Below are positions 15,643 through 39,652 of a stretch of 64,000 bases of DNA, one piece after another (position 1 is the first letter of the stretch; the number at the start of each line of letters is the position of its first letter). The DNA is taken from contig JBBQCD010000001.1 in assembly GCA_038318385.1 (NCBI GenBank), positions 14,164-78,163 on the forward strand. The letters run 5' to 3'. Origin of the DNA: Burkholderiales bacterium. Lineage in GTDB: Bacteria; Pseudomonadota; Gammaproteobacteria; Burkholderiales; Burkholderiaceae_C. A program made the translations under genes and the position numbers. The notes under the pieces are model-generated. The model did no database searches. It was not told the origin of the DNA and worked only from the letters and a program-made list of their open reading frames with translations.

Positions 15643-15777
15643 CGGCAGCGCACTCTCGTCGACATTCACGCATTCTTCCCCGGAAGACCTTTGCAGGACG
15701 GCGCCGGCCACTATAGCCTCGGCCCCCGCGCGGACGCGCACAATTCCCTGTCACCTACCGCCCCACCCGGAGTCGCC

Positions 15778-25474: not shown

Positions 25475-25738
25475 GGAGAACTCCGGTGGAACCCGCCCAG
25501 TGTTGCAGCGGCCCCTGCGGGCCCGATGTGAAAAACAGCCGGGTTCGGGGTTTCGATGCGCGGATTGGCGGCGATGCAACGTCGTCACGAACGGTGGCGA
25601 GGGGAGCCAACGCCCGGCTGCCCTGCGCCCAGTCCGACAGGGATCTGCGCCTGAAGCCGACAGCGCCCTGCTCGCCGAAGCAGAAGAATGACTCGATCGG
25701 TGCACTCTGCACCCTCGACATCCTCTGGCGCCGACCCC

Positions 25739-27064
25739 ATGACCTCTTCCACCTCAGGCGTCCGCGTGCTGGCGCTTGTTACCGCACTCGCGCTCGCCGG
25801 CTGCGGCGAAACCGCCCGTCTGACGGTCGATGCCGGCACGGGCCCGAACCCGCAGCTCCCGCCACCCAACAAGTCGTTGATCCCGACCGTCAACATCGCG
25901 CCCGCCACGGGCTGGGCTCCCGGAGGCACGCCGACACCGGCCCCGGGTCTGCAGATCACGGCCTTCGCGCGTGAACTCGATCATCCGCGTTGGTTGCTGG
26001 TGCTTCCCAACGGCGACGTGCTCGTCGCCGAGACGAATGCCCCGCCGAAACCCGAGGACGGACAAGGCATCAAGGGCTGGATCATGAAGATGGTGATGAA
26101 GCGGGCTGGCGCAGGGACGCCCAGCGCGAACCGCATCACCCTGCTGCGCGATGCCGACGGCGACGGCAGCGCCGAGACCCGCACGGTGTTTCTCGAAGGC
26201 CTGCATTCGCCGTTCGGCATGGCCCTGGTCGGCAACGACCTCTACGTCGCCGACACCGACGCGGTGTTGCGCTTCCCCTATGTCAGCGGCGAGACCCGGA
26301 TCAGCGTCGCTGGCACGAAGGTGGTCGACCTGCCTGCCGGTCCGATCAACCATCACTGGACCAAGAACATCATCGCCACGCCCGACGGAGGCAAGCTGTT
26401 CGTGACCGTCGGTTCGAACAGCAACGTCGCCGAGAACGGCATCGAGGCAGAAGAAGGACGCGCTGCCGTGTGGGAAGTCGATCCGCACAGTGGCCAGCAT
26501 CGCATCTACGCCTCCGGCATCCGCAATCCGAACGGCATGGCCTGGCGGACGGACAACGGGGCTGCGGTGCTCTGGACCGTCGCCAACGAGCGTGACGAGA
26601 TCGGCAGCGATCTCGTCCCCGATTACCTGACGTCGGTGCGCGACGGCGCGTTCTACGGCTGGCCGTACAGCTACTACGGCCAGCACGTCGACGAGCGCGT
26701 CCAGCCGCAGCGCCCGGATCTCGTCGCCAAGGCAATCGCGCCCGACTATGCGCTCGGCCCGCACACGGCGTCGCTCGGCCTGGCTGCTTCCGACGGCGCC
26801 GCGCTGCCCGCCCCCTTCGCCGGCGGCATGTTCGTGGGTCAGCACGGTTCGTGGAATCGCAAGCCCCGCAGCGGGTACAAGGTGATCTTCGTTCCGTTCC
26901 AGGGGGCGAGTCCCTCGGGCGAGCCGATCGACGTGCTGACAGGCTTCGTCAGCCCCGATGGCGATGCGTACGGGCGGCCCGTCGGCGTCGCCATCGACAA
27001 GCGCGGCGGCCTGCTCGTGGCCGACGACGTCGGCAACACGATCTGGCGCGTGAGCAAACCCTGA
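25739..27064 (+). CDS. PQQ-dependent sugar (sorbosone/glucose) dehydrogenase family lipoprotein
   Basis: [22 protein letters not shown] is a lipobox. Also [59 protein letters not shown]. These are beta-propeller SDH-family motifs. Confidence 0.85.
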
Positions 27065-27080
27065 CCCTCCGGTCGCGGGA

Positions 27081-27494
27081 TCAGCCTCGCGCGCGTAACG
27101 CGAGCCAGTAGGCAGCCGCTCCCGCAATGGCCGACGCCACCATGCCCCAGGCCATGTCGAGCATGACGAGCCGCGTGCTCCATCCGCGCAGCGTGGCCAG
27201 GTTGCTGAGATCGTAGGCACCGTAGGCGACAAGTCCGACCACTGCGCACCGCAACACGGCCTCTCCGAAACCGGCGGGAGCCGGTTGCAGGGCGAGATAG
27301 ACCAGACCGAGCGGATAGAGCAGGTAGAAGAGCGCCGCCGGCACGACGCGCACCGACTCGACCATCATGTCGCCGATCTCACGCTTGTAGAAGTCTCGGG
27401 CCAGCCAGCCCAGCCAGATGGCGTCGAGGGCACCCATGACGACGAGCGCGACGAGATAGGCCAGGCCGAACTGGGCAGTGGTAAGTCGAGTCAT
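27081..27494 (-). CDS. DUF2177-family membrane protein
   Basis: 137 aa, four helices. LVALVVMGALDAIWLGWLARDFYKREIG is the characteristic start of the family. Confidence 0.72.
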   Translation of the reverse strand: MTRLTTAQFGLAYLVALVVMGALDAIWLGWLARDFYKREIGDMMVESVRVVPAALFYLLYPLGLVYLALQPAPAGFGEAVLRCAVVGLVAYGAYDLSNLATLRGWSTRLVMLDMAWGMVASAIAGAAAYWLALRARG

Positions 27495-27600
27495 CGGTGG
27501 TCAGGGCTCGGAATGGGGGTTGAGGAACGATACCCCGCACATCGAAGGGCCGCGCCCGAGGGAATGACCTGAAATAAGGGTTATCCCTTAGCATGGACGC

Positions 27601-27807
27601 ATGACCATGATTCGATTGACCATGAGCCCATTCTTTCGCGTACTCGGCAGACTGTTCGCCATGTCTGTCACCGATTCCCAGGATCGCGACGCCGACTACC
27701 TCGCACAATCGACCGACATCTACGACCTCGAGCGGCGCATGCGCCACGTGGACGACCGCCAACAGACGCTGCACGCGATCGGGACTTACGGCGTCTTCAT
27801 TCGCTGA
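27601..27807 (+). CDS. DUF3563-family small protein
   Basis: DADYLAQSTDIYDLERRMRHVD matches the conserved YLAQSTDxxDLERRMR core. Three in-frame ATGs (27601, 27607, 27622) leave the start uncertain. Confidence 0.62.
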   Translation: MTMIRLTMSPFFRVLGRLFAMSVTDSQDRDADYLAQSTDIYDLERRMRHVDDRQQTLHAIGTYGVFIR

Positions 27808-27831
27808 ATGCCTCCCGGGCCGAGACCGGCA

Positions 27832-28353
27832 TTACCATGTCGCCCGAACCAGCCCGGCCACTGCAACGGCGCGCGTTCCCGTGCCCCCGCCCGGCCCGAT
27901 CACCGCCTGCGTGATCGCCCAACGAGGCAGCGGTTCGCCGGCATTGAGTTCGTCGACGTAACGAAGCAGAGTCGCAAAGTCGACGAATTCGGCGTCCACA
28001 TGGATCGAACGCTCGGCCCTCACGATTTCGACCGTCACCAGGTCGACCCCGGCCATGTCGACCGTCTCGAGGGCCGTCAGCATGGCCGGCCAGTCGGAGG
28101 GGGATGCGACCCTCGCCTTTTCGTGAGGCTTCGCCGCCGAAGGCTCCCGCGAGGCAGGTAGCGACTCTGCAGTCTTGGAGGCGACCTCCCGCATCAATCC
28201 GTCGCGGCGCGCATTCAACTCCCCGAGGCGGTTCGTGGCGTCGATGACGCCGGCCCACAGCGCCAGCGTTCCGACCGTGCCGGCCACGAGAACAAGCCCC
28301 TGCACGACCCGCGGCGTCGACCGGCGGCGCAGGTCGACATTCAAGGGTTTCAC
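27832..28353 (-). CDS. PilN/GspM-like bitopic inner-membrane assembly protein (last gene of the secretion operon)
   Basis: The GTG at 28353 overlaps the upstream stop (GTGA). It has a short basic N-terminus, one TM (VVQGLVLVAGTVGTLALWAGVI), a coiled segment, then a C-terminal alpha/beta region (VDLVTVEIVRAERSIHVDAEFVDFATLLRYVDEL). The call rests on architecture only. Confidence 0.5.
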   Translation of the reverse strand: MKPLNVDLRRRSTPRVVQGLVLVAGTVGTLALWAGVIDATNRLGELNARRDGLMREVASKTAESLPASREPSAAKPHEKARVASPSDWPAMLTALETVDMAGVDLVTVEIVRAERSIHVDAEFVDFATLLRYVDELNAGEPLPRWAITQAVIGPGGGTGTRAVAVAGLVRATW

Positions 28354-29138
28354 GAGATCGCTTCCAGCGGCGAGCTGAAAGGCGGGCCATCGGGCGCAGG
28401 CTCCGCAGCGACGCCGTGACGCTCGCGCATGGCCACGCGGATGGCTCTCCCGGGATCGAGATTCGACGTCAGAAGGGCTCGAACGGTCAAGTCGCGCAAC
28501 GCCAGCGTCCCGGGCACGGGCGAATGGCTCGCCGCAGAGATAAGGGCTCCGGTGCCGCCAATGAGGACGGTCGCTGCGTCGGTATCGTGGGCGAGCACGA
28601 GCGCGTCGGCCCCGCGACCGCGATCGAGGGCGTGGTTGAACGCCAGCGTCCACCAGGGCCGCAAGGCGACCAGTCTCGCGCCGCTGCGCCGGCAAGCGGA
28701 CTCGATGGCGCCCCGCAGGGAGCGATCCATTGCCACGCACAGGCACGGACGTTGGGGGGCCCATGCGTCGAGCCAGACGTCGCACGGGCCTTCCAACCCC
28801 GTGGCCTCGAGCGCCATGTGCGCGACCACCTCTTGCGCCTCGCGAATGTGCACCAGGCCCGACACGGGCTCGAGGAAGAATGGAGGTGCGAGGGCACCGG
28901 ACAGCGAGATCGCCAGGCGCGGACGGCGCCATCCAGCGCGACGGGCGTCCAGCAGAACCAACACCTTCCGAAGGCCGTCCAGCGGCGAATCCGCTGCAAG
29001 CCAGTGCTCCTCAGCGGGCGACGACGCGTCATGGCCCGCAACGGCCACTCGCGTTGTCCCGAGATAGATCTGGATGACCTCAGAGGCAGCCCACGACACG
29101 CTGGACCTCCTCGACCGAGGTATGCCCGCGAACCACAT
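28350..29138 (-). CDS. PilM / GspL-cytoplasmic-domain-like actin-fold protein without a transmembrane segment
   Basis: About 250 aa and soluble. Position directly after gspE, and a pattern of alternating beta/alpha blocks (VIQIYLGTTRVAVAG..., CLCVAMDRSLRGAIESACRRSGARLVALRPWW, ALVLAHDTDAATVLIGG). The start is uncertain: ATG 29138 or GTG 29099, and both overlap gspE. Confidence 0.45.
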   Translation of the reverse strand: MWFAGIPRSRRSSVSWAASEVIQIYLGTTRVAVAGHDASSPAEEHWLAADSPLDGLRKVLVLLDARRAGWRRPRLAISLSGALAPPFFLEPVSGLVHIREAQEVVAHMALEATGLEGPCDVWLDAWAPQRPCLCVAMDRSLRGAIESACRRSGARLVALRPWWTLAFNHALDRGRGADALVLAHDTDAATVLIGGTGALISAASHSPVPGTLALRDLTVRALLTSNLDPGRAIRVAMRERHGVAAEPAPDGPPFSSPLEAIS

Positions 29139-30693
29139 GCCATGCAGCTTGACTCACGAGCGATTCGACTCCCCGTTCGACGGCATGGCGGCGCAGGGCA
29201 GAGACCGGTACGCCCTCGGTGACGCCATCGCGCAAGGTGTCGTCGACCCGATGAACCTCGGCAACCACGAACCGACCTCGATACCCGGTCGCGCCGCAGT
29301 GCGTGCAGCCGACCGCTCGCGGCACACCGTGCTGGTCGGCCTGACCCGCCATCGCGAGCCAATCACGCTCGCGCTCGGTCGTCTCGCGCACCGCAACGCA
29401 GTGTTCGCAGAGTCGCCTCACCAGGCGCTGGACGACTACGCCGTTCAACGACGACATGAAGCCGAACATGTCGAGTCCGAAGTGCCGGAAGCGACCGATC
29501 ACGTCAGTGATGCCGTTTGCGTGCACCGACGTGAACACCAGATGTCCCGTGAGGGAAGACTGAACCGCGATCTCGGCGGTCTCGGCGTCGCGGATCTCAC
29601 CGACCAGGATCCGGTCGGGGTCATGCCGCAAGATGGATCGCAGCCCCCTCGCGAATGTGAGGCCCTTGCGCTCATTGACGGGAATCTGAAGGACGCCGGG
29701 CAGCTCGTACTCCACCGGGTCCTCGATGGTGATGATCTTCTCGGCCCCTGTGTTGATCTCGGAAAGCACTGCGTAGAGGGTCGTCGTCTTGCCGCTTCCC
29801 GTGGGTCCGGTGACCAGCAGCATTCCGCTCGGCTCGCGCGCCATGTCGCGAATCAGCATGGCATTGCCTTCCTGAAATCCGAGCAGGTCGAGTGAAAGAG
29901 CGGACGACCGGCTGCGCAGCTGCGCCTTGTCGAGCAAACGCAGAACCGCATCCTCCCCGAACGCGCTCGGCATGATCGAAACCCGGAGATCGGTGCTGTC
30001 GCCCGCGCGGCTGAAGCGGAACCGACCGTCCTGAGGCAACCTGCACTCGGTGATATCGAGTTGCGCCAGAACCTTGATTCGCGAAACGACTTCCTGAGCC
30101 GACTGGAGTCCTTCCAGGCGCGAATGGCGTCTGATCACGCCGTCGAGACGATGCTTGACGGTGACGCCCGACCGGTCGCACTCGAAATGGACGTCACTGG
30201 CGCCACACTGCAGCGCTGCGACGACGGCCGCGTCGACGAAGGCGACGACCGGACTGTCGGCGGATGATGACCGCGCCCAGGTCGTATCGCCGGCGGCGGT
30301 GCCGGCTTCGTCACCGAGGAGCCGATCGATGGCGGCCCGCGTCGCCGCAGCGGGGGCTACCCGCGCACCGAGGCGCCGGCTGGCACGTCGCAACAGCGCT
30401 TCGTCCCAGGGGTCTTCGGCAACGAGCAGCGGAGCGCTGGCTTCGCGCGGCACGATGGCACAGCGCCAGCCGCGAGCGGTCGCCCGATCGATGACGGAAA
30501 AATCCGCCTGCTCGGCAGGGCCGGCGTCGAAGAATCCGACGCCGGCCTCGGCCGGGAGGCGTTCAGCGAGGGTGGAGACGTCCCAACCCGGCAAGCTCAG
30601 CAACACGTCGAGAATGGCTGGGCCGCCGGCGCGATAGTGTCCGCGAGCGGTCGACACCGCTTCGCGAAGCGAAGAATCATGCGCGAGCATCAT
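29080..30693 (-). CDS. gspE: GspE/PilB-family secretion ATPase
   Basis: ASDVHFE, ITECRLPQDGRF, LVTGPTGSGKTTTLYA (Walker A), ITIEDPVEY, RHDPDRILVGEIRD (Walker B / Asp box), TGHLVFTSVHAN (His box), CEHC...CTHCGATGYRGR (tetracysteine). I prefer the ATG at 30693, 9 nt after the gspF stop. Confidence 0.92.
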   Translation of the reverse strand: MMLAHDSSLREAVSTARGHYRAGGPAILDVLLSLPGWDVSTLAERLPAEAGVGFFDAGPAEQADFSVIDRATARGWRCAIVPREASAPLLVAEDPWDEALLRRASRRLGARVAPAAATRAAIDRLLGDEAGTAAGDTTWARSSSADSPVVAFVDAAVVAALQCGASDVHFECDRSGVTVKHRLDGVIRRHSRLEGLQSAQEVVSRIKVLAQLDITECRLPQDGRFRFSRAGDSTDLRVSIMPSAFGEDAVLRLLDKAQLRSRSSALSLDLLGFQEGNAMLIRDMAREPSGMLLVTGPTGSGKTTTLYAVLSEINTGAEKIITIEDPVEYELPGVLQIPVNERKGLTFARGLRSILRHDPDRILVGEIRDAETAEIAVQSSLTGHLVFTSVHANGITDVIGRFRHFGLDMFGFMSSLNGVVVQRLVRRLCEHCVAVRETTERERDWLAMAGQADQHGVPRAVGCTHCGATGYRGRFVVAEVHRVDDTLRDGVTEGVPVSALRRHAVERGVESLVSQAAWHVVRGHTSVEEVQRVVGCL

Positions 30694-30704
30694 GGAGGCT
30701 GCAG

Positions 30705-31901
30705 TCAGCGGACGCCATTGGCAATATCGAAGATCGGCATGTACATCGTGACCACGATGCCGCCGACCACCAGCGCGACCAGCAACAGCAGCAGCGGCTC
30801 GACAACTCGCATCGCTCGCTCCACGAAGGTCGCGAATTCGCCAGCGCAACGGTCGGCAATCGCCTGGAGCACCGTGTCGAAGCTGCCACTGCGCTCACCC
30901 ACGCCCAGCAGGCGGCGCGTGACCTCATCGGTGAGTCCGGCTTCGCCGAATGCAGACGCCACCGCACGGCCCTGGGCGATCTCGCCGCGCGCCCGCGCGA
31001 TGCCGGTGTCGACACTCGTTCCAAGACCCATTTCCGCGCTCACCGCCAGTGCTTCGTCGAGCGTGTAGCCGCCGCGAAACATCAGCGCGAGAGCCTGATA
31101 GAGCTTGGCGCGGCGGAAGTGATTCCACTGATTGCGCAGCGGCGGTATCACCTCGACGAGACGCGCCATCATCTTCCAGGCAAGACCTTTGCGGAACATC
31201 CATGCCACCAGGAGAAGAAGGCCGACCCCTGCGGCCATCACCACGGGCACTTGGTCGTGCAAGGCCTCGCTGAGCATCATCAACACGCGCGTCGGCACGC
31301 TGACGGCGCCATGGAAGTCGACGTACATCCGAGAAAATCGCGGGATGACATAGAGCAGCAGGAACAACGCCACCAGAAACCCCAACAGCGCGACGACGGC
31401 CGGGTAGATTGCCGCGCTGATCGCCTGGCGGCTCAGGCGCATGACCATTTCGTCGTAACGCAGGTAATCCTCGAGTGCGCCGGTCAACGTTCCGGTGCGC
31501 TCGCTGGTCGTGACGCCGGCGATGAGGACGGCCGGAAACGCACCGGAGCGCTGCATGGCACGCGACAGGCGGTGCCCCTGCTGCAACGAGCGAAGCAACC
31601 CGGTGTGCACGATCTCGCGTTCTGTTCCTCGAGCTTGGGCGGCCAGCGTCTCGAGGGCCTCCACCGCCGTCATGCCGGCCTTCAGCAAGGTGGCCAGCTC
31701 GCGACACCAGGTGGCCACTGCGAAGCGCGACGGGCGTGGAGCGAGCACGAGCGACGCCTTCGAGTCGTGGCGCAGCTGGAGGACGATCCTTCCGGCGACG
31801 GCGGAGTCGGTGCGAAGGGCTTGCTCCGAGGGAGCCTCGACTCGCGAGTCGACAACGGCTCGCTGCACCGGATCGTAGTAGCGCAACCCGTACATGGCCA
31901 T
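30705..31901 (-). CDS. gspF: GspF/PilC-family inner-membrane platform protein
   Basis: 398 aa with two repeated T2SSF domains (RELATLLKAGMTAVEALETLA ... ERTGTL; LYQALALMFRGGYTLDEAL ... GERSGSFDTVLQ) and three TM segments. Confidence 0.9.
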   Translation of the reverse strand: MAMYGLRYYDPVQRAVVDSRVEAPSEQALRTDSAVAGRIVLQLRHDSKASLVLAPRPSRFAVATWCRELATLLKAGMTAVEALETLAAQARGTEREIVHTGLLRSLQQGHRLSRAMQRSGAFPAVLIAGVTTSERTGTLTGALEDYLRYDEMVMRLSRQAISAAIYPAVVALLGFLVALFLLLYVIPRFSRMYVDFHGAVSVPTRVLMMLSEALHDQVPVVMAAGVGLLLLVAWMFRKGLAWKMMARLVEVIPPLRNQWNHFRRAKLYQALALMFRGGYTLDEALAVSAEMGLGTSVDTGIARARGEIAQGRAVASAFGEAGLTDEVTRRLLGVGERSGSFDTVLQAIADRCAGEFATFVERAMRVVEPLLLLLVALVVGGIVVTMYMPIFDIANGVR

Positions 31902-31925
31902 GATGCGTCCCTTGGCCCGGGCCCA

Positions 31926-32384
31926 TCAGCGGACGATGTCGGCGGCGTCGCCGCTGCCACCCGGGAGCCGGTCCTTGCCGTGACTCAGGAGGTCGTAATC
32001 CCGGCCATTCGAGCCCGGTGCCCGATATTGATAGGGCGTGCCCCAGGGATCCAGCGGAACATCGCTCTGCAGGTACGGGCCGCGCCAGCGTGACTCGTCC
32101 ACCGGTTGCGAAACCAGGGCACGCAGGCCCTGGGCCGTCGAAGGGAAGCGGCCGGTGTCGATTCGATAGCCCTGGAGTGCCTTGTCGAACGCATCGAGCT
32201 GCGCGCGCGCGGCGGTCACCTCCGAACGACCGACCTGGCCGAGAAAACGGGGCGCGACGACGCCGGTCAGCAAGCCGATGATCAGGATGACGACAAGCAG
32301 TTCGAGCAAGGTGAAGCCCTGGAAGCCCCGCCCAGAATGAAGCCCCGACGGCGCCTGCATCCGCAGGGCGGTACGCCTGCTCAT
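31926..32384 (-). CDS. gspG: major pseudopilin GspG
   Basis: GFTLLELLVVILIIGLLTGVVAPRF (prepilin cleavage/methylation motif with Glu5), AQLDAFDKALQGYRIDTGRFPSTAQGLRALV, RWRGPYL, DPWGTPYQYRAPG, YDLLSHGKD. The ATG at 32384 overlaps the upstream stop (ATGA). Confidence 0.9.
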   Translation of the reverse strand: MSRRTALRMQAPSGLHSGRGFQGFTLLELLVVILIIGLLTGVVAPRFLGQVGRSEVTAARAQLDAFDKALQGYRIDTGRFPSTAQGLRALVSQPVDESRWRGPYLQSDVPLDPWGTPYQYRAPGSNGRDYDLLSHGKDRLPGGSGDAADIVR

Positions 32385-32914
32385 CGATCGACCTTCGCGA
32401 TGAACTTCCACTCGGAGTATTCCCGCGCGGCCGGTAGCGCAAGCCCGGACATTTCCCACGGCGCGACGTGCATCGGCTTTTCGGTACCAAGGCTGAAGAC
32501 CCCCCTAACGCTGCCGTCCGCACCCCGCACGATTCCCCACGGCCTCGCGGGGTCGAGCGGATCGGGGTAGAGCTTGCGAAGATGCCGGAGCGTTCCGACG
32601 CGACGTCCATCGGCCAGGAGACTGTCGAGGTCTGGCGGATACGCCTTCAGCGAGCCCGGGGAGGCAGCGTGATAGGCAGCAATGGCTGCGGCGTACAGGG
32701 ACCCGATGCGCAGGAGATCCTGTTCGCGATCGCGCCGGCTGGCATCGGACCACCTGGGAGCGACCGTGGCCAGGCCGAGCGAGAACACGACCACGGCCGC
32801 GAGCATCCACACGTAGGTGAACCCTGGACCGGAAGATGCTGATGGGGGTCCGCGCCGAGCCCGGCAACCGGCGGGACGGAGGGCGGATCGCCGCGCGCAG
32901 TCACCAGGCCGCAT
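32381..32914 (-). CDS. atypical minor pseudopilin (prepilin-like N-terminus lacking Glu5)
   Basis: GPGFTYVWMLAAVVVFSLGLATVAPRW has a G/F cleavage context but Trp where Glu5 is expected. It has a long basic leader. The ATG at 32914 overlaps the previous gene by 14 nt. Confidence 0.55.
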   Translation of the reverse strand: MRPGDCARRSALRPAGCRARRGPPSASSGPGFTYVWMLAAVVVFSLGLATVAPRWSDASRRDREQDLLRIGSLYAAAIAAYHAASPGSLKAYPPDLDSLLADGRRVGTLRHLRKLYPDPLDPARPWGIVRGADGSVRGVFSLGTEKPMHVAPWEMSGLALPAAREYSEWKFIAKVDR

Positions 32915-33287
32915 ATCGTGTCCCGTCGCGGGCTGAACCCTCCGCCCCACTCCGCACATCTGCAACGGCCCCGGAATCGGGAGCCGTTGGTGCGACCAAG
33001 ATCCAGGAATCGGCGCGTTCGGTGATCGGATCGAGCGGGAGCCGGCGCAGGTATCGCGCCTGAACCAGTTCATCGAGATCGATCGGAAAGCGTGCACGAT
33101 CGGCATGGAACTTGTCGATCGCGTCGCGCACGCCAGCGAGGTTGTGTCGCAGCACCGCCTCGCGCGCGCGGTCGACATGCTCGGTGTAGCGCGGCGCGCT
33201 GATCGAGAGCAACAGACCGAGGGCGGCCATGACGACCAGCAGTTCGATCAAGGTGTATGCACTGGCGGCGCGCCGTAAACGCGGCAT
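32901..33287 (-). CDS. minor pseudopilin (prepilin-type N-terminal methylation domain)
   Basis: MPRLRRAASAYTLIELLVVMAALGLLLSISAPRY has Ala at position -1 instead of Gly. The C-terminal DVRSGAEGSARDGTRYAAW resembles the tail of the preceding pseudopilin. Confidence 0.72.
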   Translation of the reverse strand: MPRLRRAASAYTLIELLVVMAALGLLLSISAPRYTEHVDRAREAVLRHNLAGVRDAIDKFHADRARFPIDLDELVQARYLRRLPLDPITERADSWILVAPTAPDSGAVADVRSGAEGSARDGTRYAAW

Positions 33288-33289
33288 CT

Positions 33290-33766
33290 CTACCACTCCT
33301 TCAGGGCGATGCCGTTCAAGCCGATCCGTTCCGAACGGGAAGCCACGTCGTAGACGTCGGCGCCCGGGCGCGGTCGCTCGGCAGAGGACTGGTAGCTGCG
33401 CAGCGCCCACGTCTGTGCGGCAGGGACGCTCGCCACCGCGAACGGATCCCGCGGAATCCGTCGCAGGAAGCGGTGGGTGCGCCCCGCTACCTTGGGGTCG
33501 GCCAACCCGCTTACCAGGGATTCGAGGCTCTCCGGATAGCCGGTCTCTCCCGGTTTCCCCGCGATCCCCCCGGCATCGGTGGCGCGGCGGTAAGCATCGA
33601 TGGCATCGCGAATCTCCCACAGCGCATGCTTCAACTCGCGCTCCCGATCGCGCTGGACCGCGATCTCCGCCATCGGCAACGCCGCGGCCGCGAGGATGCC
33701 GAGAACCGCCATCACGGCCAGCAATTCGACCAGCGTGTAGCCTCGGGAGCGCGGATGGCGCGTCAT
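33290..33766 (-). CDS. pseudopilin (GspG-like fold family, prepilin-type N-terminus)
   Basis: MTRHPRSRGYTLVELLAVMAVLGILAAAALPM. C-terminal DVYDVASRSERIGLNGIALKEW. The ATG at 33766 overlaps the secretin stop (ATGA). Confidence 0.8.
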   Translation of the reverse strand: MTRHPRSRGYTLVELLAVMAVLGILAAAALPMAEIAVQRDRERELKHALWEIRDAIDAYRRATDAGGIAGKPGETGYPESLESLVSGLADPKVAGRTHRFLRRIPRDPFAVASVPAAQTWALRSYQSSAERPRPGADVYDVASRSERIGLNGIALKEW

Positions 33767-36069
33767 CGAGTCCCCGCAACCTGCTGGATGTCCAGTTTCA
33801 ATGGCGGCAGCGACGCCGGCTCGGCAACGGGCCCGGCCAGACCGATCGGACGCATGCTCAACAGTGCAACCTCCGCGAGGCCCGCCGCGAGCGCCTTGAA
33901 GCGCAAGGTGAGGACATTGCCTTTGCCGACAGCGCCGGTCAGCGTCGTTCGGAGGACGCCCGCGCTGGCGCGGGCGCTCCCGGCGTCGATGGTCTGGGTG
34001 AAGCTGGTCTGCGCACCGCCCTGCCGGAAGAGTTCGGCCTCCTCGATCGCGACCAGTTCGAGCTTGCCCTTGCTGTAGCCGAGCTCGACGGGCAAGCCCC
34101 GAAGGGGCTGGTCAGACTGAATGGCAACCCGCACGTCGAACGTGTCGCCGGCCTTCACGCTCGGCGGTCCGCTCAGCGACGCGATCGGCGATGCCGATGT
34201 CGACGCCTCCGGTGGCGCCACCACCGGGCTCTGCGGCGGCCAGGAACGGGCCGCTACGCCCCCGCCCCCGCCGCCGCCCGAGGACGCTGCCGACGATGAA
34301 TCACCGCCCCCGCCGAGATCGCCCCCGGCCTGAGCCGACGTTGCGACGCCGCCGACCGGTCTCAGCCGCGGCGACGCCTCCGTCCCGACCCAGATTTCAG
34401 ATTCCGCGATGTCCGGTCGTTTCAGACTGCGAAGGACGCGCGGGGTGATCGAGAGCACCAGCTCGACCCGCTGCCCATTGTCGAGCTGACTGGAGAACAG
34501 CCGGCCCGCCAACGGCAGGTCGCCCAGCCCGGGTACCTTGCTGGCGTCGCTGCGCTCGGCCGTGCTGATCAGCCCCGCAAGCAGCTGGGTTTCACCGTCG
34601 CGCAACCTCAGCAGGGTCGACGCGTTGCGCGTGCCGATCTGGTAGGCGAGCGTTCCGGATGCGGTCTTGATGACGCTGCCGAGCGAGCTGACCTCGAGTC
34701 CGATCCTGATCGCCACCTCGTCGTCGACGTAGACCGTGGGCTCCACCTCGAGCTTGAGTCCGACATCGATGTAGCTGACGCTGTCGGAAACGAAACCGGT
34801 CGAACCCTGCGTCGTCGTCACGATCGGGATCTTGTCGCCGACGAGGACGCGGGCCTTCTCCTTGCTGCGCACCCGGATGCGCGGGTTGGCAAGCATGTTG
34901 AAATCGCCCGTCTCGCGCTTGAGGTTGACGGTGACGCCGCCGATCGACAGGCCGATACGGTCGCGGGTCACGCCGCGGACGTTGGCGAGAGTCAGTCGAT
35001 CCGCGCCCATCGGCGGCAGCAAGGTCAAGGCGAAGAAGTCCGGAAACTTCACGCCCAGTTCGGTGAGACGAGAGGTATTGATCTCGATGACCTCGACTTC
35101 GAGCAGGACCTCGGGCTCGGCAGTGTCGTAGAGCATCAGAAGGCGTTCGGCCATCTGCACGTTCGGCTCCGATTCGCGCAGCGCCAGCATGTTGGTGCGC
35201 TCGTCGACATAGGGGTCGCGGATCTTCAGCATCGATTTCAGGAACGCGGCTGCGCCCTTGGCGTCGCCACCCGACAGGTGGAAGACGCGCACGACCTGCT
35301 CCTGGTGCTCGCGCTGCTTGTCCGGCGTGTTGGGGTAGATCAGCATCGTCCGGCTGTCGACCACCTTCTTGGCCAGCTGGTTCGTGCTGACGATCAGCTC
35401 GACCGCGTCCTCGACCCGTACCGACCGCAGATAGGCGGTGACGCGAACGTCGCTGCGAATGTCCTTGTCGAAGACGAAATTGATGCCGCTGTTCCTCGAC
35501 ACGGCATCGAGAACGGTGCGCAGGTTCGCGTCCCGGAAGTCGATGGAGATGGGTCGCGTCTCGGCAAGGCCGAGTTGCGACGCCTGAAGCTGGGTCTGGC
35601 GTTGCTCGGCCTCGATGCGTCGCTTCAACGCCAGCAGTTCCGGATGCCGCGGCTGCGCCTTCAGCGCTTCGACAACAGTCGAAGAGGCCGCGTCCAGACG
35701 ACGTTGATCGACGAGCGCACGGGCGCGAGCCAGCGCGGCCTCCTGCCGCCGGTCGGTGGCGATCTGGCTGCGCATGGCGTCGATGCGCGGGTCGTTCGGC
35801 TGAAGGGTCGAAGCACGCATCAGGACCCGTTCGGCATCGTCGAGCTGGCCTTCTGCACGCGCAGACCCGGCCTGGGCGAGCACGCGCGCCAGCACTTCCG
35901 CCTTGGTCTCGAGCAGTCCGGCTCGCAACAGTGCGCTTTCAGGGTAGGTCTGCAACCCGGACTCGAGGACCATCGTGGCCTGCTCGTAGTGACCCGCACG
36001 CATCTGGATCAGGGATTCGTCGCGGATCCGTTGCTGGACACAGCCAGCAAGTGCAAGGAGGGTGCACAA
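33763..36069 (-). CDS. gspD: secretin (GspD/PilQ superfamily) lipoprotein with N-terminal TPR-like region and C-terminal Gly/Ser linker plus cohesin-like domain
   Basis: Secretin core: FNMLANPRIRVRSKEKARVLVGDKIPIVTTT...LLRLRDGETQLLAGLIS...KVPGLGDLPLAGRLF...ELVLSITPRV. N-domain: ISIDFRDANLRTVLDAVSRNSGINFVF. Lipobox: LALAGC. The tail (aa ~633-745) is an all-beta pattern, GDTFDVRVAIQSD...GNVLTLRFKALAAGLAEVAL. The start is uncertain (TTG 36069; see findings). Confidence 0.88.
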   Translation of the reverse strand: MCTLLALAGCVQQRIRDESLIQMRAGHYEQATMVLESGLQTYPESALLRAGLLETKAEVLARVLAQAGSARAEGQLDDAERVLMRASTLQPNDPRIDAMRSQIATDRRQEAALARARALVDQRRLDAASSTVVEALKAQPRHPELLALKRRIEAEQRQTQLQASQLGLAETRPISIDFRDANLRTVLDAVSRNSGINFVFDKDIRSDVRVTAYLRSVRVEDAVELIVSTNQLAKKVVDSRTMLIYPNTPDKQREHQEQVVRVFHLSGGDAKGAAAFLKSMLKIRDPYVDERTNMLALRESEPNVQMAERLLMLYDTAEPEVLLEVEVIEINTSRLTELGVKFPDFFALTLLPPMGADRLTLANVRGVTRDRIGLSIGGVTVNLKRETGDFNMLANPRIRVRSKEKARVLVGDKIPIVTTTQGSTGFVSDSVSYIDVGLKLEVEPTVYVDDEVAIRIGLEVSSLGSVIKTASGTLAYQIGTRNASTLLRLRDGETQLLAGLISTAERSDASKVPGLGDLPLAGRLFSSQLDNGQRVELVLSITPRVLRSLKRPDIAESEIWVGTEASPRLRPVGGVATSAQAGGDLGGGGDSSSAASSGGGGGGGVAARSWPPQSPVVAPPEASTSASPIASLSGPPSVKAGDTFDVRVAIQSDQPLRGLPVELGYSKGKLELVAIEEAELFRQGGAQTSFTQTIDAGSARASAGVLRTTLTGAVGKGNVLTLRFKALAAGLAEVALLSMRPIGLAGPVAEPASLPPLKLDIQQVAGTR

Positions 36070-36162
36070 GACGACCTGCGACAGACCGAGGGAGAGTCTC
36101 GGTGTCGTTGTCCCACCCTGCGCGTTCGCTGCATCGATGATGGGCTCCGCGTCTCACTGCGT

Positions 36163-36723
36163 TCAATCGCGGGGAATCGGGACTGTCGCTGTCGTACCGG
36201 TAATCTCGTGGACCAGCGTGACGGCCTCGTCGGACACGGACATCACGGTGTAGCCCTCGTCGACTTTCTGACCGGCGACGACCGCGAACTCGGAGGCCCC
36301 GCGTGCCATGTAGAACAGTGGGCCGCCCTCGACAGGCGCCATTCGGCCGACGAAGCGAAGCCCTATCGAAGGGGCGGCCGCCGCAATGACCGTGCGGGGA
36401 GCGGGGCCTGGATTGCCGGCCGAGGATGGCACCGTCGGAGTGACCTGTCGAACGACGGGCGGCGGCTGGGATGGCATCGGGTCCGATCGCAGGGCGAAGA
36501 TGTCCCGCTTCGCGTCTTCGAGCCCATGTCCGCGTCCGGCGTCGGGCGCGGCCACTCCCCGGTTGGCGGTTGCCGTCGTCTCCCGCGTGGTGGTGCCTCG
36601 CACGCCCACCATCTCGGAGGTCCCGTTCACCGCAGCAACAGCCTGCACGGGACGATCCGTCCATGCGGACGCGGCCGCCAGCATCGCGGCAACGCCAAGT
36701 GAGAACAGCAGGCCGCGACGCAT
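36163..36723 (-). CDS. PilP / GspC-HR-like periplasmic protein
   Basis: Signal peptide MRRGLLFSLGVAAMLAAASA, then a Pro-rich linker. The C-terminal LRFVGRMAPVEGGPLFYMARGASEFAVVAGQKVDEGYTVMSVSDEAVTLVHEITG fits the PilP/GspC homology-region beta-sandwich pattern. It sits immediately upstream of the secretin. Confidence 0.55.
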   Translation of the reverse strand: MRRGLLFSLGVAAMLAAASAWTDRPVQAVAAVNGTSEMVGVRGTTTRETTATANRGVAAPDAGRGHGLEDAKRDIFALRSDPMPSQPPPVVRQVTPTVPSSAGNPGPAPRTVIAAAAPSIGLRFVGRMAPVEGGPLFYMARGASEFAVVAGQKVDEGYTVMSVSDEAVTLVHEITGTTATVPIPRD

Positions 36724-36738
36724 CTCAGCCCCTTCCTG

Positions 36739-37314
36739 TCAGCGGCCGGCCTGCGTCGCCGCGGCGAATGGCGGACGACCCAAGGTCACGAGCAGTGTCA
36801 CGTCGACACCGGCCCCGGCGGCACCTCTGCGCAACGAGATGCGATCGAGCGTCGAGTCGGAATACCGGTCCGCGGTTGCAGCCAGGACCCGCTTGACGTT
36901 CGGGTATGTCCCGTGGAGGCCGAGATGCAGGACTTCTGACGAGTCTGGCGCGCCTTGAGTTGCCGACGGCTGCGCGTGCAGGGTCGTCAGTTCGACAGAC
37001 GACTCCAGGGAGTCGCGTTGCAGACTGGCGATCAGCGCTTGTGTCGTGGTCGCTGGCCGATTGACGATCGTCATGTCGGCCGGTGGCGACTCCGCATGCG
37101 CGACGCCCTCCGGCAAGACGGGCTTCAACTGCCGATCGACCTTGCTGATGTTGGCCCGCAGCGCGCGAACCCGGGCTTCCAGATGGGCCGTCAGAACCCA
37201 GGCGACAACCGCGAGGAAGGCCATGCAGAGCAGAATGGCCCGACGGATGGGAGGGTCGAGCGCTTGATGCCAAACCACCCGGAAAGAGGCCCGAACGCCG
37301 CTCGGGAGGCGCAA
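36739..37314 (-). CDS. PilO/GspM-like bitopic inner-membrane protein (first gene of the secretion operon)
   Basis: One TM (AILLCMAFLAVVAWVLTA), a coiled segment (HLEARVRALRANISKVDRQL) and a C-terminal domain (VLHLGLHGTYPNVKRVLAATADRY...VDVTLLVTL). The start is TTG 37314 or GTG 37278. Confidence 0.5.
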   Translation of the reverse strand: MRLPSGVRASFRVVWHQALDPPIRRAILLCMAFLAVVAWVLTAHLEARVRALRANISKVDRQLKPVLPEGVAHAESPPADMTIVNRPATTTQALIASLQRDSLESSVELTTLHAQPSATQGAPDSSEVLHLGLHGTYPNVKRVLAATADRYSDSTLDRISLRRGAAGAGVDVTLLVTLGRPPFAAATQAGR

Positions 37315-37504
37315 GCCGAGGTGGACGGCGGACGCTTGTTCGAATCGAAGTTTGTCGGCACACGATCCCCGCTTGGTCGGACGCCGTCACGTCAGGGAGA
37401 ACTACGGCGACGTCTTCCGAGAGACGTCCATGGATCTCACGGTATCGACGCGTCGCCACTGCGGCAACACCCCCAAAGGAGGGCGGCTGCAACACCGACG
37501 CGTC

Positions 37505-39652
37505 TCAGTCAGGCACTGCGGCGAAGTCGTCGACCTGGATGACGCGGTCGGCCGCCCGCAGGTAGGCGAGTGCGGCCGCTGGATCGCGCGAAGCTTGCGC
37601 AGCTTCCTCGAGCGAATTCGTTCGGCGCAGGACCTTGTTCAGTTCGGGCAGCTCGTCGCCCACGGTGTCGGCGAGCTGGAGTGCCTGCATCAGATCGCGC
37701 AGCCCGCCGCTGGCCGGCATGCCGACATCCGGGCACAGACGCCGCACGAGCGCGGGGTCCTCGCGCAACGCTTCGGCCTGGCCGATGAGGTCGCGGTCGC
37801 GCAACGGCGCCAGGTGGCGCGTGCCGCGCAACAGCAGCGGCGCGACGATCCGCAGCGCGCGCGACGGCAGGTTCGCATACAGGTCGCGCAGCGTGGCCGA
37901 AGCCAGGTCGAGTTGCACGCGGACCGCAGCACGCGCGATCGGCAGCATCTTCGGATCGCCCTCGACCTCGTAGCGCCACAGGCACGCAGAGGCGAGGTAG
38001 AGGTGCGACAACACGTCGCCGAGCCGCGCAGACAGCAGTTCCATGCGCTTGAGCTTGCCGCCGAGCAGGCCCATCGCCAGGTCGGCGGTCAGCGCGTACT
38101 TGGCCGAGACCCGCGCGATCAGCCGCGCCTCCTTTGCAAGGTCGGCCGGAGGATGGCCGCGCACGGGCGCCCACGCGAGGCTCGCCCAGAGATTGCGCCA
38201 GACGTGCGCGCCGTGGCCGAGCAGCGCATGCCCGAGCGCATCGGCGTCGCGCTTCTCCACGGCGGCCATTTCCGCGAGCACATGGGGGTGGCAGCGCACG
38301 GCACCCTGGCCGAAGATGATCAGCGCGCGGGTCAGGATGTTCGCGCCCTCCACCGTGATGGCGATCGGCGCGTGCCGGTAGGCCACGCCGAGGAGGTTCT
38401 TCGGCCCCGCACTGATCCCCTTGCCGCCGAGGATGTCCATGCCGTGGGTGACGGCGCGGCGGCCGGCTTCGGTGAGATGCACCTTGAGGATCGCACTGGC
38501 GACGCTCGGCCGCTCGCCCTGGTCGAGCGCGGCGGCGGTGTAGCGTCGCGCCGCGTCGGTCGCATAGAGATCGACCGCCATCCGCGCGATGAGCGCCGCG
38601 ATGGCATGGAACCGGCTGATCTGCAGACCGAACTGCTCGCGGATGCGACCGTAGCCGACGACCACGTTCAGCGCCACCTGCTGCATCGAGGCGCCGAGCG
38701 CCGGCAGGGAGATGGCCCGCCCCGCGGCGAGGCTTTCCATCAGCATGCGCCAGCCCTGCCCGACCTGCGACTCGCCGCCGATGATCCAGTCCATCGGCAC
38801 GAACACGTCCTCGCCGCGGACCGGACCGTTCATGAAAGAAGAGTTCATCGGTCGATGGCGCCTGCCGATGTCCATGCCGGCGGTCGGCACCGGCACCAGC
38901 GCGCAGGTGATGCCGAGTTCCTGCTCGCCCTCGGGGCGCCCGGGGTCGATGGCGTGGAATGCCAGCCCGACCACGGTGGCCACGGGCGCCAGCGTGATGT
39001 AGCGCTTGTCGAAGTTGACGAGGAAGCCCCGCACGGGGCGCCCGTCGATCTGGCGCTCGGTCAGCACGCCGCGGTCCGGAATCGACGCCGCGTCCGACCC
39101 GGCGTAGGGCGAGGTCAGGCCGAAGCACGGCAGCTCGCGGCCATCGGCCAAGCGCGGCAGGTAGTGCCGCTTCTGGGTCTCGCTGCCGTAATGGAGCAAC
39201 AGTTCCGCGGGTCCGAGCGAATTCGGCACCATCACGGTCACGGCCGCGGCGACGTTCGTCGACGCGATCCGGGTGACGACTGCGGCGTGGGCAAAGTGCC
39301 CGAATCCGAGGCCGCCGAACTCGCGCGGAATGATCATGCCGAAGAACTTGTGTTCCCGCAGGAACTGCCAGACCGCAGGGGGCAGGTCACCGGCCTCGTC
39401 GATCGCGAAGTCGTCGAGCATCGCGATCAGCTCGGCAACGTCATGGTCGAGGAAGTGCTGCTCCGCGTCAGTCAACCGGTTCGGGCCGACGGCCCGCAAG
39501 GCGTCGAAGTCCGGTCTGCCAGCGAAGAGCTGGCCTTCGAATCCCACGGTGCCGGCTTCGAGGGCAGCCCTCTCGGTGTCGCCGATCGGCGGCAACGCTT
39601 TCGTGAAGGGCGCGAGCGCCCATCGTCCGAGCCAGCTGCTGGCCATTCCCAT
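37505..39652 (-). CDS. large FadE-type acyl-CoA dehydrogenase
   Basis: 715 aa. GMIIPREFGGLGF, CFGLTSPYAGSDAASI and ILGGKGISAGP resemble E. coli FadE-class ACADs with the extended C-terminal domain. Confidence 0.87.
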   Translation of the reverse strand: MGMASSWLGRWALAPFTKALPPIGDTERAALEAGTVGFEGQLFAGRPDFDALRAVGPNRLTDAEQHFLDHDVAELIAMLDDFAIDEAGDLPPAVWQFLREHKFFGMIIPREFGGLGFGHFAHAAVVTRIASTNVAAAVTVMVPNSLGPAELLLHYGSETQKRHYLPRLADGRELPCFGLTSPYAGSDAASIPDRGVLTERQIDGRPVRGFLVNFDKRYITLAPVATVVGLAFHAIDPGRPEGEQELGITCALVPVPTAGMDIGRRHRPMNSSFMNGPVRGEDVFVPMDWIIGGESQVGQGWRMLMESLAAGRAISLPALGASMQQVALNVVVGYGRIREQFGLQISRFHAIAALIARMAVDLYATDAARRYTAAALDQGERPSVASAILKVHLTEAGRRAVTHGMDILGGKGISAGPKNLLGVAYRHAPIAITVEGANILTRALIIFGQGAVRCHPHVLAEMAAVEKRDADALGHALLGHGAHVWRNLWASLAWAPVRGHPPADLAKEARLIARVSAKYALTADLAMGLLGGKLKRMELLSARLGDVLSHLYLASACLWRYEVEGDPKMLPIARAAVRVQLDLASATLRDLYANLPSRALRIVAPLLLRGTRHLAPLRDRDLIGQAEALREDPALVRRLCPDVGMPASGGLRDLMQALQLADTVGDELPELNKVLRRTNSLEEAAQASRDPAAALAYLRAADRVIQVDDFAAVPD

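Follow-up and report, generated by a model that had tools for sequence, protein, structure and literature searches.

The 64,000-nucleotide stretch of DNA analysed here, referred to throughout as the window, comes from a Burkholderiales bacterium (NCBI GenBank assembly GCA_038318385.1, contig JBBQCD010000001.1, positions 14,164 to 78,163 of the forward strand) and carries at positions 27832–37314 an operon of eleven genes, all on the minus strand and numbered g1–g11 from its upstream end. An earlier note on this DNA, which had proposed a secretion operon that mixes type II secretion system (T2SS) features with those of type IV pili, described eleven genes running in the same direction here, and all of these open reading frames (ORFs) are present, with coding-type GC content by codon position. 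The genes are tightly and translationally coupled, with gaps of 15 nt between g1 and g2, 93 nt between g2 and g3 (counted from the TTG codon at 36069), 2 nt between g4 and g5, 24 nt between g7 and g8 and 11 nt between g8 and g9. The remaining junctions are overlaps, and the four listed in the note are exact, being 4 nt for g3–g4 (ATGA at 33763–33766), 14 nt for g5–g6 (32901–32914), 4 nt for g6–g7 (ATGA at 32381–32384) and 4 nt for g10–g11 (GTGA at 28350–28353). It had missed a fifth, between g9 and g10, which amounts to 20 nt with the g10 start at GTG 29099 or 59 nt with the ATG at 29138 that was assumed in the note. We are highly confident that the locus represents a complete pseudopilus-driven outer-membrane secretion machine belonging to the "unorthodox T2SS" family of the Burkholderiales.

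The fibre, platform and ATPase of this machine are Gsp-like, as had been proposed, by Pfam and NCBIfam scans of the window proteins in which equivalog matches were judged against curated cut-offs. The major pseudopilin is GspG, encoded by g7 (31926–32384; T2SSG 3e-36), which scores 158.9 bits against a cut-off of 88.85 for TIGR01710 and is the sole core protein to reach its equivalog cut-off. Three minor pseudopilin genes precede it, and the four pseudopilins are mutual paralogues. The first, g4 (33290–33766), has the prepilin signal G/YTLVE and an N_methyl match (1.2e-8), with partial matches to GspG and GspH that are under the NCBIfam cut-offs, and the second, g5 (32901–33287), is a small GspG-like pseudopilin (signal A/YTLIE, N_methyl 2.7e-5, 48.8 bits against the same TIGR01710 cut-off) sharing 33–34% identity with g4 and g7. 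The glutamate at position 5 (Glu5) is present in g4, g5 and g7, and is kept by 46 of the 48 homologues of g4 and 47 of the 50 homologues of g5. The third, g6 (32381–32914), is paralogous to g4 and has the signal G/FTYVW, in which position 5 is A, W or L, and never E, in all of the homologues where the motif was found. By analogy with GspK, g6 is a candidate tip or initiator subunit, although the likeness consists of the absent Glu5 only, and none of the three minor pseudopilins reaches a cut-off for GspH, GspI, GspJ or GspK.

The inner-membrane platform protein g8 (30705–31901) belongs to the GspF/PilC family and has two T2SSF domains (2e-32), with NCBIfam scores of 179.9 bits for GspF (TIGR02120; cut-off 424) and 178 bits for HofC. 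The assembly ATPase g9 (29080–30693) is of the GspE type (T2SSE 3.5e-111), with an N-terminal T2SSE_N/MshEN domain and with Walker A (GPTGSGKT) and CxxC...CxxC motifs, both read off the translation. Its NCBIfam scores are 432 bits for GspE (TIGR02533; cut-off 630), 391 bits for PilB and 141 bits for PilT (cut-off 319), and the MshEN/T2SSE_N match is to a generic domain only, with no MshE equivalog. These scans uphold the earlier calls of GspG, GspF and a tetracysteine GspE, as well as those of the TPR, secretin and cohesin regions of g3.

The outer-membrane component is the lipoprotein secretin g3 (33763–36069), in which a lipobox (LAGC) is followed by a TPR module (TPR_14 and TPR_19), an N0/STN domain, one Secretin_N domain, the secretin barrel (Pfam Secretin 4.9e-37), a Gly/Ser linker and, at the C-terminus, a cohesin domain (5.3e-6; 27.1 bits, cut-off 24.1). 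The Pfam scores for STN, Secretin_N and N0 are under their cut-offs, and these are the only N-domains detected, compared to the canonical N0-N1-N2-N3 series of GspD. In the NCBIfam scan PilQ (150.9 bits) and GspD (142 bits, cut-off 351) are both far under cut-off, with PilQ marginally higher. The lipobox residues G9 and C10 are invariant in 16 homologues. No pilotin gene is present in the operon, as had been noted before, though this has to be qualified since g3 is a lipoprotein and carries a TPR module at its N-terminus, which is the likely reason for the absence.

The start of the secretin gene is unusual. The sole canonical in-frame start is TTG 36069, which lies nine residues ahead of the lipobox cysteine (M-CTLLALAG/C), and a signal peptide beginning here would be too short and uncharged for a lipoprotein. 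Upstream of this codon the frame stays open for 28 codons, reading ...EPIIDAANAQGGTTTPRLSLGLSQVV, with no in-frame ATG, GTG or TTG within 36070–36162, and the apparent 93-nt spacer at 36070–36162 (minus strand) is probably the 5' end of the secretin gene. In the closest relative of the window, a contig we refer to as L083 (77–92% nucleotide identity, with the same flanks; 22.9 kb of the contig were compared), the nucleotides GGAGCCCATCATC and the peptide EPII[DE]AA are kept in frame, and the in-frame extension common to both includes a conserved GGAGCCC-ATC-ATC. This suggests that g3 may initiate at ATC 36141 or 36138 behind a GGAG Shine-Dalgarno sequence, which is the most economical, if unproven, reading because the in-frame nucleotides and peptide are conserved in L083 and the out-of-frame ATG at 36134 is not. 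The 93-nt gap reported earlier stands if TTG 36069 is the start, but the conserved extension would cut it to ~21 nt; in the relatives, the g2–g3 junction ranges from a 4-nt overlap to ~12 nt. A frameshift at the secretin start, combining the out-of-frame ATG 36134 (MQRTRR...) with a 1-nt indel, was also considered and set aside, as this ATG is AGG in L083 and the in-frame upstream peptide is conserved.

No direct Pfam or NCBIfam matches were found for the window proteins g1, g2, g10 and g11 (or for the pseudopilin g6), and the four accessory proteins, which had earlier been assigned from their architecture alone as equivalents of PilMNOP or GspLMC, were analysed via positional homologues drawn from 80 related loci. 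The clearest case is g10 (28350–29099; GTG start at 29099 with a GGAGG Shine-Dalgarno sequence, giving the 249-aa recorded product P0121), which lacks a transmembrane segment. It has no Pfam match in 38 homologues and nothing meaningful in a PDB profile search with the family, and homologue searches returned four matches by single sequence and nine by the 38-sequence profile. However, the AlphaFold2 model made from a shallow 10-sequence alignment (predicted local distance difference test, pLDDT, 82.8; predicted template-modelling score, pTM, 0.83) matches by Foldseek PilM 5eox (2.2e-9), the cytoplasmic domain of EpsL 1yf5 (2.6e-9, TM-score 0.56/0.58 over the full 238-aa target), cytoplasmic PulL 5tkw, GspE:GspL 4pht and FtsA, all with probability 1.0. 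By these matches g10 is a soluble actin-like protein the size of cytoplasmic GspL, and it is the expected partner of the GspE N-domain.

The next gene, g11 (27832–28353), encodes a bitopic GspL-C/PilN-like protein. The PDB profile of the family matches the periplasmic domain of GspL (5hl8, 0.0023; 8a9w/8ab1, 0.008) and PilN (3jc8, 0.62), and among 36 homologues Pfam finds PilN in five (6.1e-7) and GspL_C in four. Given the cytoplasmic GspL/PilM fold of g10 and these matches of g11, the two genes constitute a split GspL arranged in the manner of PilM and PilN; both domains of the single bitopic GspL are present, on two genes that overlap by the GTGA.

At the other end of the operon, g1 (36739–37314) encodes a bitopic platform protein of the GspM-type-b/PilO-like kind, with a transmembrane helix, a coiled coil and a ferredoxin-like periplasmic domain. 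Among its 41 homologues PF10741 (T2SSM_b) is found in 30 (best E 4.7e-8), PilO in four and T2SSM in two, and g1 is a GspM by its homologues and fold, while the window protein itself has no PF10741 match. The AlphaFold model (33 sequences, pLDDT 81.5) has a long transmembrane/coiled-coil helix at residues 21–66 followed by two alpha-beta-beta units, for which the best Foldseek matches are PilO 3jc8_Oa (8.5e-6), PilO 2rjz (1.8e-4, root-mean-square deviation 2.3 A), PulM and EpsM; a PDB profile search with the full-length family gave nothing meaningful. The g1 and g11 families are related to each other by hhalign (93.6% probability, E 2e-7), as expected of a PilN/PilO or GspL-C/GspM pair. It should be noted that the recorded g1 product (P0131, 161 aa, from ATG 37224) cuts into the predicted transmembrane helix, and the start is probably GTG 37278 or TTG 37314, which give a better fit to the homologue alignment and the model.

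The last accessory protein, g2 (36163–36723), begins with a signal or anchor segment and continues through a Pro-rich linker to a C-terminal beta domain of ~70 aa, with no lipobox and no PDZ, Pfam or NCBIfam match. Its gene lies directly upstream of the secretin gene in most relatives. When the profile of the 88 C-terminal residues was compared with 177,635 PDB sequences only three matches were returned, all of them sub-significant (PilP 2ivw, E 0.17; PilP 4av2_M, 0.79; GspC HR domain 3oss_C, 1.9). Position, topology and motif agree with a PilP/GspC-HR-like connector, to which g2 may tentatively be assigned, and it would carry the HR/PilP-like C-terminal domain only (E 0.17–1.9), compared to the HR plus PDZ or coiled-coil regions of GspC. 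The earlier assignments were thus borne out for g10 (Foldseek E ~1e-9), g11 (GspL periplasmic domain and PilN) and g1 (T2SSM_b and the PilO/PulM fold), and at a sub-significant level only for g2.

The earlier note had implied that this architecture was unique, which it is not. A pattern scan of one genome per species, followed by tblastn confirmation, recovered secretin relatives in 565 genomes, of which the best 80 match over the full length and were used for the locus analyses. There are more than 100 full-length homologues of g3 at 55–67% identity, most with the TPR/secretin/cohesin set according to the precomputed Pfam column, and the eleven-gene set is conserved in at least 80 species. 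Carriers include Roseateles, Ideonella, Rhizobacter, Piscinibacter, Rubrivivax, Polaromonas, Rhodoferax, Hydrogenophaga, Janthinobacterium, Duganella, Herbaspirillum, Ralstonia and Sulfuricella. The gene order of the window is kept in ~40 loci, while others have the order G-F-E-Lcyto-Lperi-M-P-D-pseudopilins, with the four accessory genes contiguous, or are missing GspG at the g7 position. As the order g2-g3-...-g11 is repeated in ~40 species and the gene set permuted in others, the operon is no chance arrangement. This also qualifies the description of a split PilMNOP set placed at the two ends of the operon, which is correct for the window but represents one circular permutation of a set found contiguous in other genomes. 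One locus (L001, CALRRO020000009.1) is titled as a Chitinophaga pinensis metagenome-assembled genome, yet its operon is of the betaproteobacterial type with 66% GC and its secretin is 62% identical to that of the window; the title is probably a binning or labelling error.

In Ralstonia the family has been noticed before. A cluster described as an "unorthodox T2SS" in R. solanacearum consists of seven core genes and, between its gspE and gspD, four hypothetical ones (Li et al. 2016, PMC5080846), and such clusters occur on both the megaplasmid and the chromosome in the R. solanacearum species complex (PMC5080846; Cho et al. 2019, PMC6428702). The window has the same set, namely genes for D, E, F, G and three prepilins as a Gsp-like core of seven, and four hypothetical genes. 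In our search of a plasmid collection, 110 Ralstonia megaplasmids carried the secretin (42–43% identity over 96–99% of the length), and that of GMI1000 (pGMI1000MP 587688–589847; 42.5% identity over 96%) also has the TPR/secretin/cohesin architecture. The cluster in Ralstonia CFBP 8697 (L082) is annotated as GspD, two hypothetical proteins, two prepilins, a "T2SS protein", GspG, an ATPase and two further hypothetical proteins, and the unannotated stretch between GspG and the ATPase holds a GspF homologue found by tblastn. Both the secretin architecture and the eleven-gene set (D, two hypothetical, three prepilin-type, GspG, F, E and two hypothetical) are therefore common to the Ralstonia clusters and the window, the gene set by annotation and tblastn in CFBP 8697 and GMI1000, and Rhs/TcB-like genes adjoin the cluster in Ralstonia (PMC6428702), as they do in most relatives. 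In contrast, the Ralstonia order is D-M-P-pseudopilins-G-F-E-L-L rather than the M-P-D-pseudopilins-G-F-E-L-L of the window, and the window has no adjoining Rhs/TcB gene. These clusters are listed in genome papers only, where the accessory genes are named hypothetical, and no functional study or experiment on any family member was found in the searchable literature, nor anything beyond the Ralstonia remarks on cohesin-secretins or a link between T2SS and Rhs. The match to a gene set already on record is thus to a system that has never been characterised, and the window operon belongs to a T2SS variant with Pil-like features that is widespread and has been noticed but not characterised.

T2SSs and type IV pili are homologous machines, and the operon shares features with both. 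In common with the canonical T2SS (Gsp/Pul/Eps/Xcp) it has a GspG major pseudopilin, a zinc-finger GspE-type ATPase with an N-domain, a GspF platform, the cytoplasmic GspL fold, a ferredoxin-like pair equivalent to GspL-C and GspM, an HR-like connector, a pseudopilin lacking Glu5 and a secretin. It differs in that GspL is divided over two genes, a GspC with a PDZ or coiled-coil region is absent, the minor pseudopilins are three small proteins without a hidden Markov model (HMM) match to GspH, I, J or K rather than four, the secretin has N0 and one N-domain with TPR and cohesin modules rather than N0–N3, GspO, N, A, B and S are missing from the operon, and E, F and D are under their equivalog cut-offs. 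No prepilin peptidase (GspO/PilD) occurs in the operon or its conserved neighbourhood, nor among those window genes outside the operon that were scanned. The absences listed in the earlier note (a PDZ-type GspC, a fused GspL, HMM matches to GspH/I/J/K, the peptidase, PilT and an adjoining cargo gene) all hold for the window, that of the peptidase for the genes scanned.

The likeness to the PilMNOPQ proteins of type IVa pili lies in the separate cytoplasmic actin-like protein, the two homologous bitopic proteins, the PilP-like protein upstream of the secretin, the short periplasmic region of the secretin and the pilMNOPQ gene order of some relatives of the operon, and the folds and the split are compatible with an alignment complex of this type. 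The operon could accordingly be read as encoding a surface fibre, either a type IV-like or a mannose-sensitive haemagglutinin (MSH)-like adhesive pilus, and not a secretion piston, a reading suited by the PilM/PilN manner of the accessory split, the PilO-like g1, the PilP-like g2, the short secretin (N0 and one N-domain) with PilQ as its best NCBIfam match, and the absence of the GspG gene from the operon in several relatives. We would add that the TPR lipoprotein module of the secretin is presumably analogous to the TPR pilotins PilF/Tgl of type IVa pili, although it is fused to the secretin in the window. Against this, the main fibre subunit exceeds the cut-off of the GspG equivalog, GspE and GspF are better-scoring matches for the ATPase and the platform than PilB and PilC, and the size (~240 aa) and TM-score profile of g10 are those of cytoplasmic GspL and not of the 350-aa PilM, being ~100 aa shorter than the latter. 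None of the PilMNOPQ-like proteins reaches a Pil equivalog, g2 has no lipobox, and the window has no PilA-type pilin, PilT/PilU, AMIN domains or FimU-PilVWXE set. The 64 kb hold no second gene for an ATPase, a platform protein or a secretin. The match to the MSH pilus secretin MshL (TIGR02519) is 89.8 bits against a cut-off of 250. Taking these together, a surface fibre is decidedly unlikely. A DNA-uptake role of the HofQ/ComG kind was also tried and rejected, with HofQ scoring 95 bits against a cut-off of 554 and no competence genes nearby.

The secretion machine which we prefer to the fibre can be outlined by homology to the Gsp and Pil systems. The GspE ATPase g9 would be docked at the membrane through the soluble actin-like g10, which would bind the bitopic g11, and this in turn would pair in the periplasm with its homologue g1. 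The three small pseudopilins (g4, g5 and the Glu5-less g6) would prime a short GspG pseudopilus (g7) that assembles on the GspF platform g8 and pushes folded periplasmic cargo out through the secretin g3, while g2 would bridge the inner-membrane platform and the N0 domain of the secretin. The secretin is probably its own pilot to the outer membrane, as a lipoprotein with an N-terminal TPR module would need no separate pilotin gene, and the prepilins would be processed by a peptidase encoded elsewhere in the genome. A partial parallel is provided by the Hxc system of P. aeruginosa, a second and dedicated T2SS with a self-piloting lipoprotein secretin (HxcQ), with cargo lying beside the machine as in most members of the window family. 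Hxc differs in keeping the canonical GspC, L, M and H–K and in its phosphatase cargo, and it is not known to have a TPR or cohesin module.

The earlier note had recommended a neighbourhood search for conserved co-occurring genes, and clustering of the ORFs from the 80 loci identified one conserved family outside the operon. This consists of giant proteins which are either TcB-like, with confirmed SpvB, FG-GAP propeller and TcdB_mid (TcdB_toxin_midN) domains, or TcC-like with RHS repeats. They usually occur as a pair of ~1,050 aa (TcB-like) and ~1,350 aa (RHS-repeat) immediately upstream on the same strand, and in some loci downstream or divergently oriented. Searches by tblastn find at least one TcB/Rhs gene at 49 of the 80 loci, and when only the 38 with 7 kb or more of upstream sequence are counted the figure is 33; these genes lie ~0.1–8 kb upstream of the operon in L001, L004, L007, L018, L030, L041, L057 and others, and are also found at L081 5783–10323 and 27042–30158 and at L082 9402–13314. 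A crude heuristic predicts a Sec signal peptide in 26 of the 37 TcB/Rhs proteins with a visible N-terminus, and more are seen by eye. In two Ideonella loci (L005 and L012, at 14.1–22 kb) the place next to the GspG gene that GspF and GspE usually take is occupied by TcB/Rhs genes, and the toxin genes appear to divide the set of machine genes. Some relatives also have small signal-peptide proteins of ~110–160 aa without a Pfam match between the Rhs gene and the operon, some of them paralogous (L075 5439–8421, L029 7495–7863, L004 8722–9048 and L005 8325–8735), which could be immunity proteins or further substrates. Clustering gave no support for a PEP-CTERM or exopolysaccharide link.

Since no other neighbour is conserved and the TcB/Rhs proteins occur in 33 of 38 relatives with enough flank, a dedicated exporter of Rhs/Tc cocoons is the best functional hypothesis for the family. 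To the proposition that the machine is dedicated to a cargo made up of a TcB-like protein, exported by Sec, and a polymorphic toxin with RHS repeats (TcC-like), we give a little under an even chance. The combination of signal peptide, SpvB and propeller architecture with RHS toxins was described by Zhang et al. (2012) as the "TcdB/TcaC export pathway" (PMC3482391), and the neighbours in our relatives show exactly this architecture; a search of that paper's text for secretin, GspD and pilin found none of these terms. The known Rhs/Tc routes (T6SS PAAR-Rhs, type VI secretion; T10SS lysis for Tc, type X secretion; and the TcdB/TcaC pathway) differ in that none uses a secretin or pseudopilus machine, and T6SS and Tc proteins differ from the neighbours of our relatives in lacking Sec signal peptides. 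More speculatively, the family might supply the missing route by which Sec-dependent TcB/TcC-type Rhs polymorphic toxins are exported across the outer membrane in betaproteobacteria, as a T2SS lineage that would export or display a ~250-kDa cocoon, with the cohesin and TPR modules as possible docking sites for cargo or partners and the window copy serving toxins encoded elsewhere; for this fuller proposal we would claim only about one chance in three.

No TcB/Rhs homologue is present in the entire 64-kb window or in the 22.9 kb of the L083 contig that were searched, and for these reasons the cargo link is purely by extension in the window genome, where any such cargo is encoded >26 kb from the operon. 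This absence of nearby toxin genes favours a different explanation, in which the machine is a general-purpose second T2SS for ordinary exoproteins (hydrolases and redox enzymes encoded elsewhere) and the Rhs adjacency reflects shared variable genomic islands. Such a role would also suit neighbours in the window such as a pyrroloquinoline quinone (PQQ)-type sugar dehydrogenase of signal-bearing type (25688–27064) and an M14 peptidase (13807–15750), and the S8 and M1 peptidases that flank the cluster of Ralstonia CFBP 8697. However, none of these enzymes is conserved across the loci, whereas TcB/Rhs is the sole conserved neighbour family, occurring in many genera, in several orientations and at 33 of 38 loci, and we consider the general-purpose explanation unlikely.

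The operon is flanked by unrelated housekeeping genes. An acyl-CoA dehydrogenase gene lies upstream on the same strand, and downstream are genes for a DUF2177 protein, the PQQ-type sugar dehydrogenase and GlnS, with RNase G, PurD, ABC transporters and more housekeeping genes farther away. A promoter and terminator scan of 27000–38000 found nothing exceeding shuffled expectation. Two differences were seen in L083 (6017–8032 and 10001–12886). Between its acyl-CoA dehydrogenase gene and the operon is a stretch with P-type cation ATPase fragments that the window does not have, and its secretin ORF, frameshifted where it encodes the cohesin domain, is joined to that of the g4 pseudopilin (P0002, 961 aa). 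This may come from assembly indels of a metagenome contig or from real decay.

The base composition of the region also differs from its surroundings, with a GC content of 0.66–0.68 over 26000–38000 compared to 0.69–0.72 in the flanks, a lower GC at third codon positions (GC3) and a positive AT skew. The operon shares 77–78% nucleotide identity with the syntenic operon of L083, compared to 82–92% for the flanking housekeeping genes, and the low GC and GC3 together with this extra divergence are consistent with a horizontal origin or faster evolution. The same observations might be taken, along with the missing adjoining cargo gene and a secretin whose only canonical start, TTG 36069, gives no signal peptide and lies just nine residues before the cysteine, as signs of a cryptic or decaying remnant that was acquired horizontally, parted from its cargo and put out of action at the start of the secretin. 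This we judge very unlikely, as all eleven ORFs are intact, of homologue length and with coding-type GC3, and the odd 5' region of the secretin gene (Shine-Dalgarno sequence, ATC-ATC and in-frame peptide) is kept in L083 despite ~22% nucleotide divergence, a conservation that points to selection on a non-ATG secretin start.

Taken as a whole, an unorthodox-T2SS machine working as outlined above and with TcB/Rhs proteins as cargo is the best explanation of the data, and one we hold to be somewhat more probable than not. A number of points weigh against it. GspE, GspF and the secretin are all under their equivalog cut-offs; the secretin has no canonical start that would give a functional lipoprotein signal peptide, and, with only N0 and one N-domain and PilQ as its best NCBIfam match, it looks more pilus-like than T2SS-like; the g2 assignment is sub-significant; and no TcB/Rhs gene is near the operon in the window or L083. 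In addition, we take the TcB-TcC cocoon of ~250 kDa to be larger than any established T2SS substrate, and it may not fit the secretin vestibule.

That these clusters are listed as an unorthodox T2SS in Ralstonia was already known, and the new context here is the TcB/Rhs linkage across the relatives. The most interesting result lies outside the window, in the strong linkage of the machine to signal-peptide TcB/Rhs toxins, and the practical value of this particular window is lower because the cargo genes are not in view. Architecturally the family stands between T2SSs and type IV pili, as its fibre, ATPase and platform are of the Gsp type, its alignment complex is of the Pil type and split, and its secretin is short and probably self-piloting. 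Being common in environmental and plant-associated Burkholderiales, it is useful for examining the divergence of the two machines and which of their parts are essential. A pan-genome study of Ralstonia found that the cluster and its rhs neighbour are absent from tomato-non-pathogenic strains (PMC6428702), which makes a role in Ralstonia host range or competition plausible. More generally, the near-constant TcB/Rhs linkage offers a testable answer to the question of how Sec-exported Rhs/Tc-like toxins cross the Gram-negative outer membrane.

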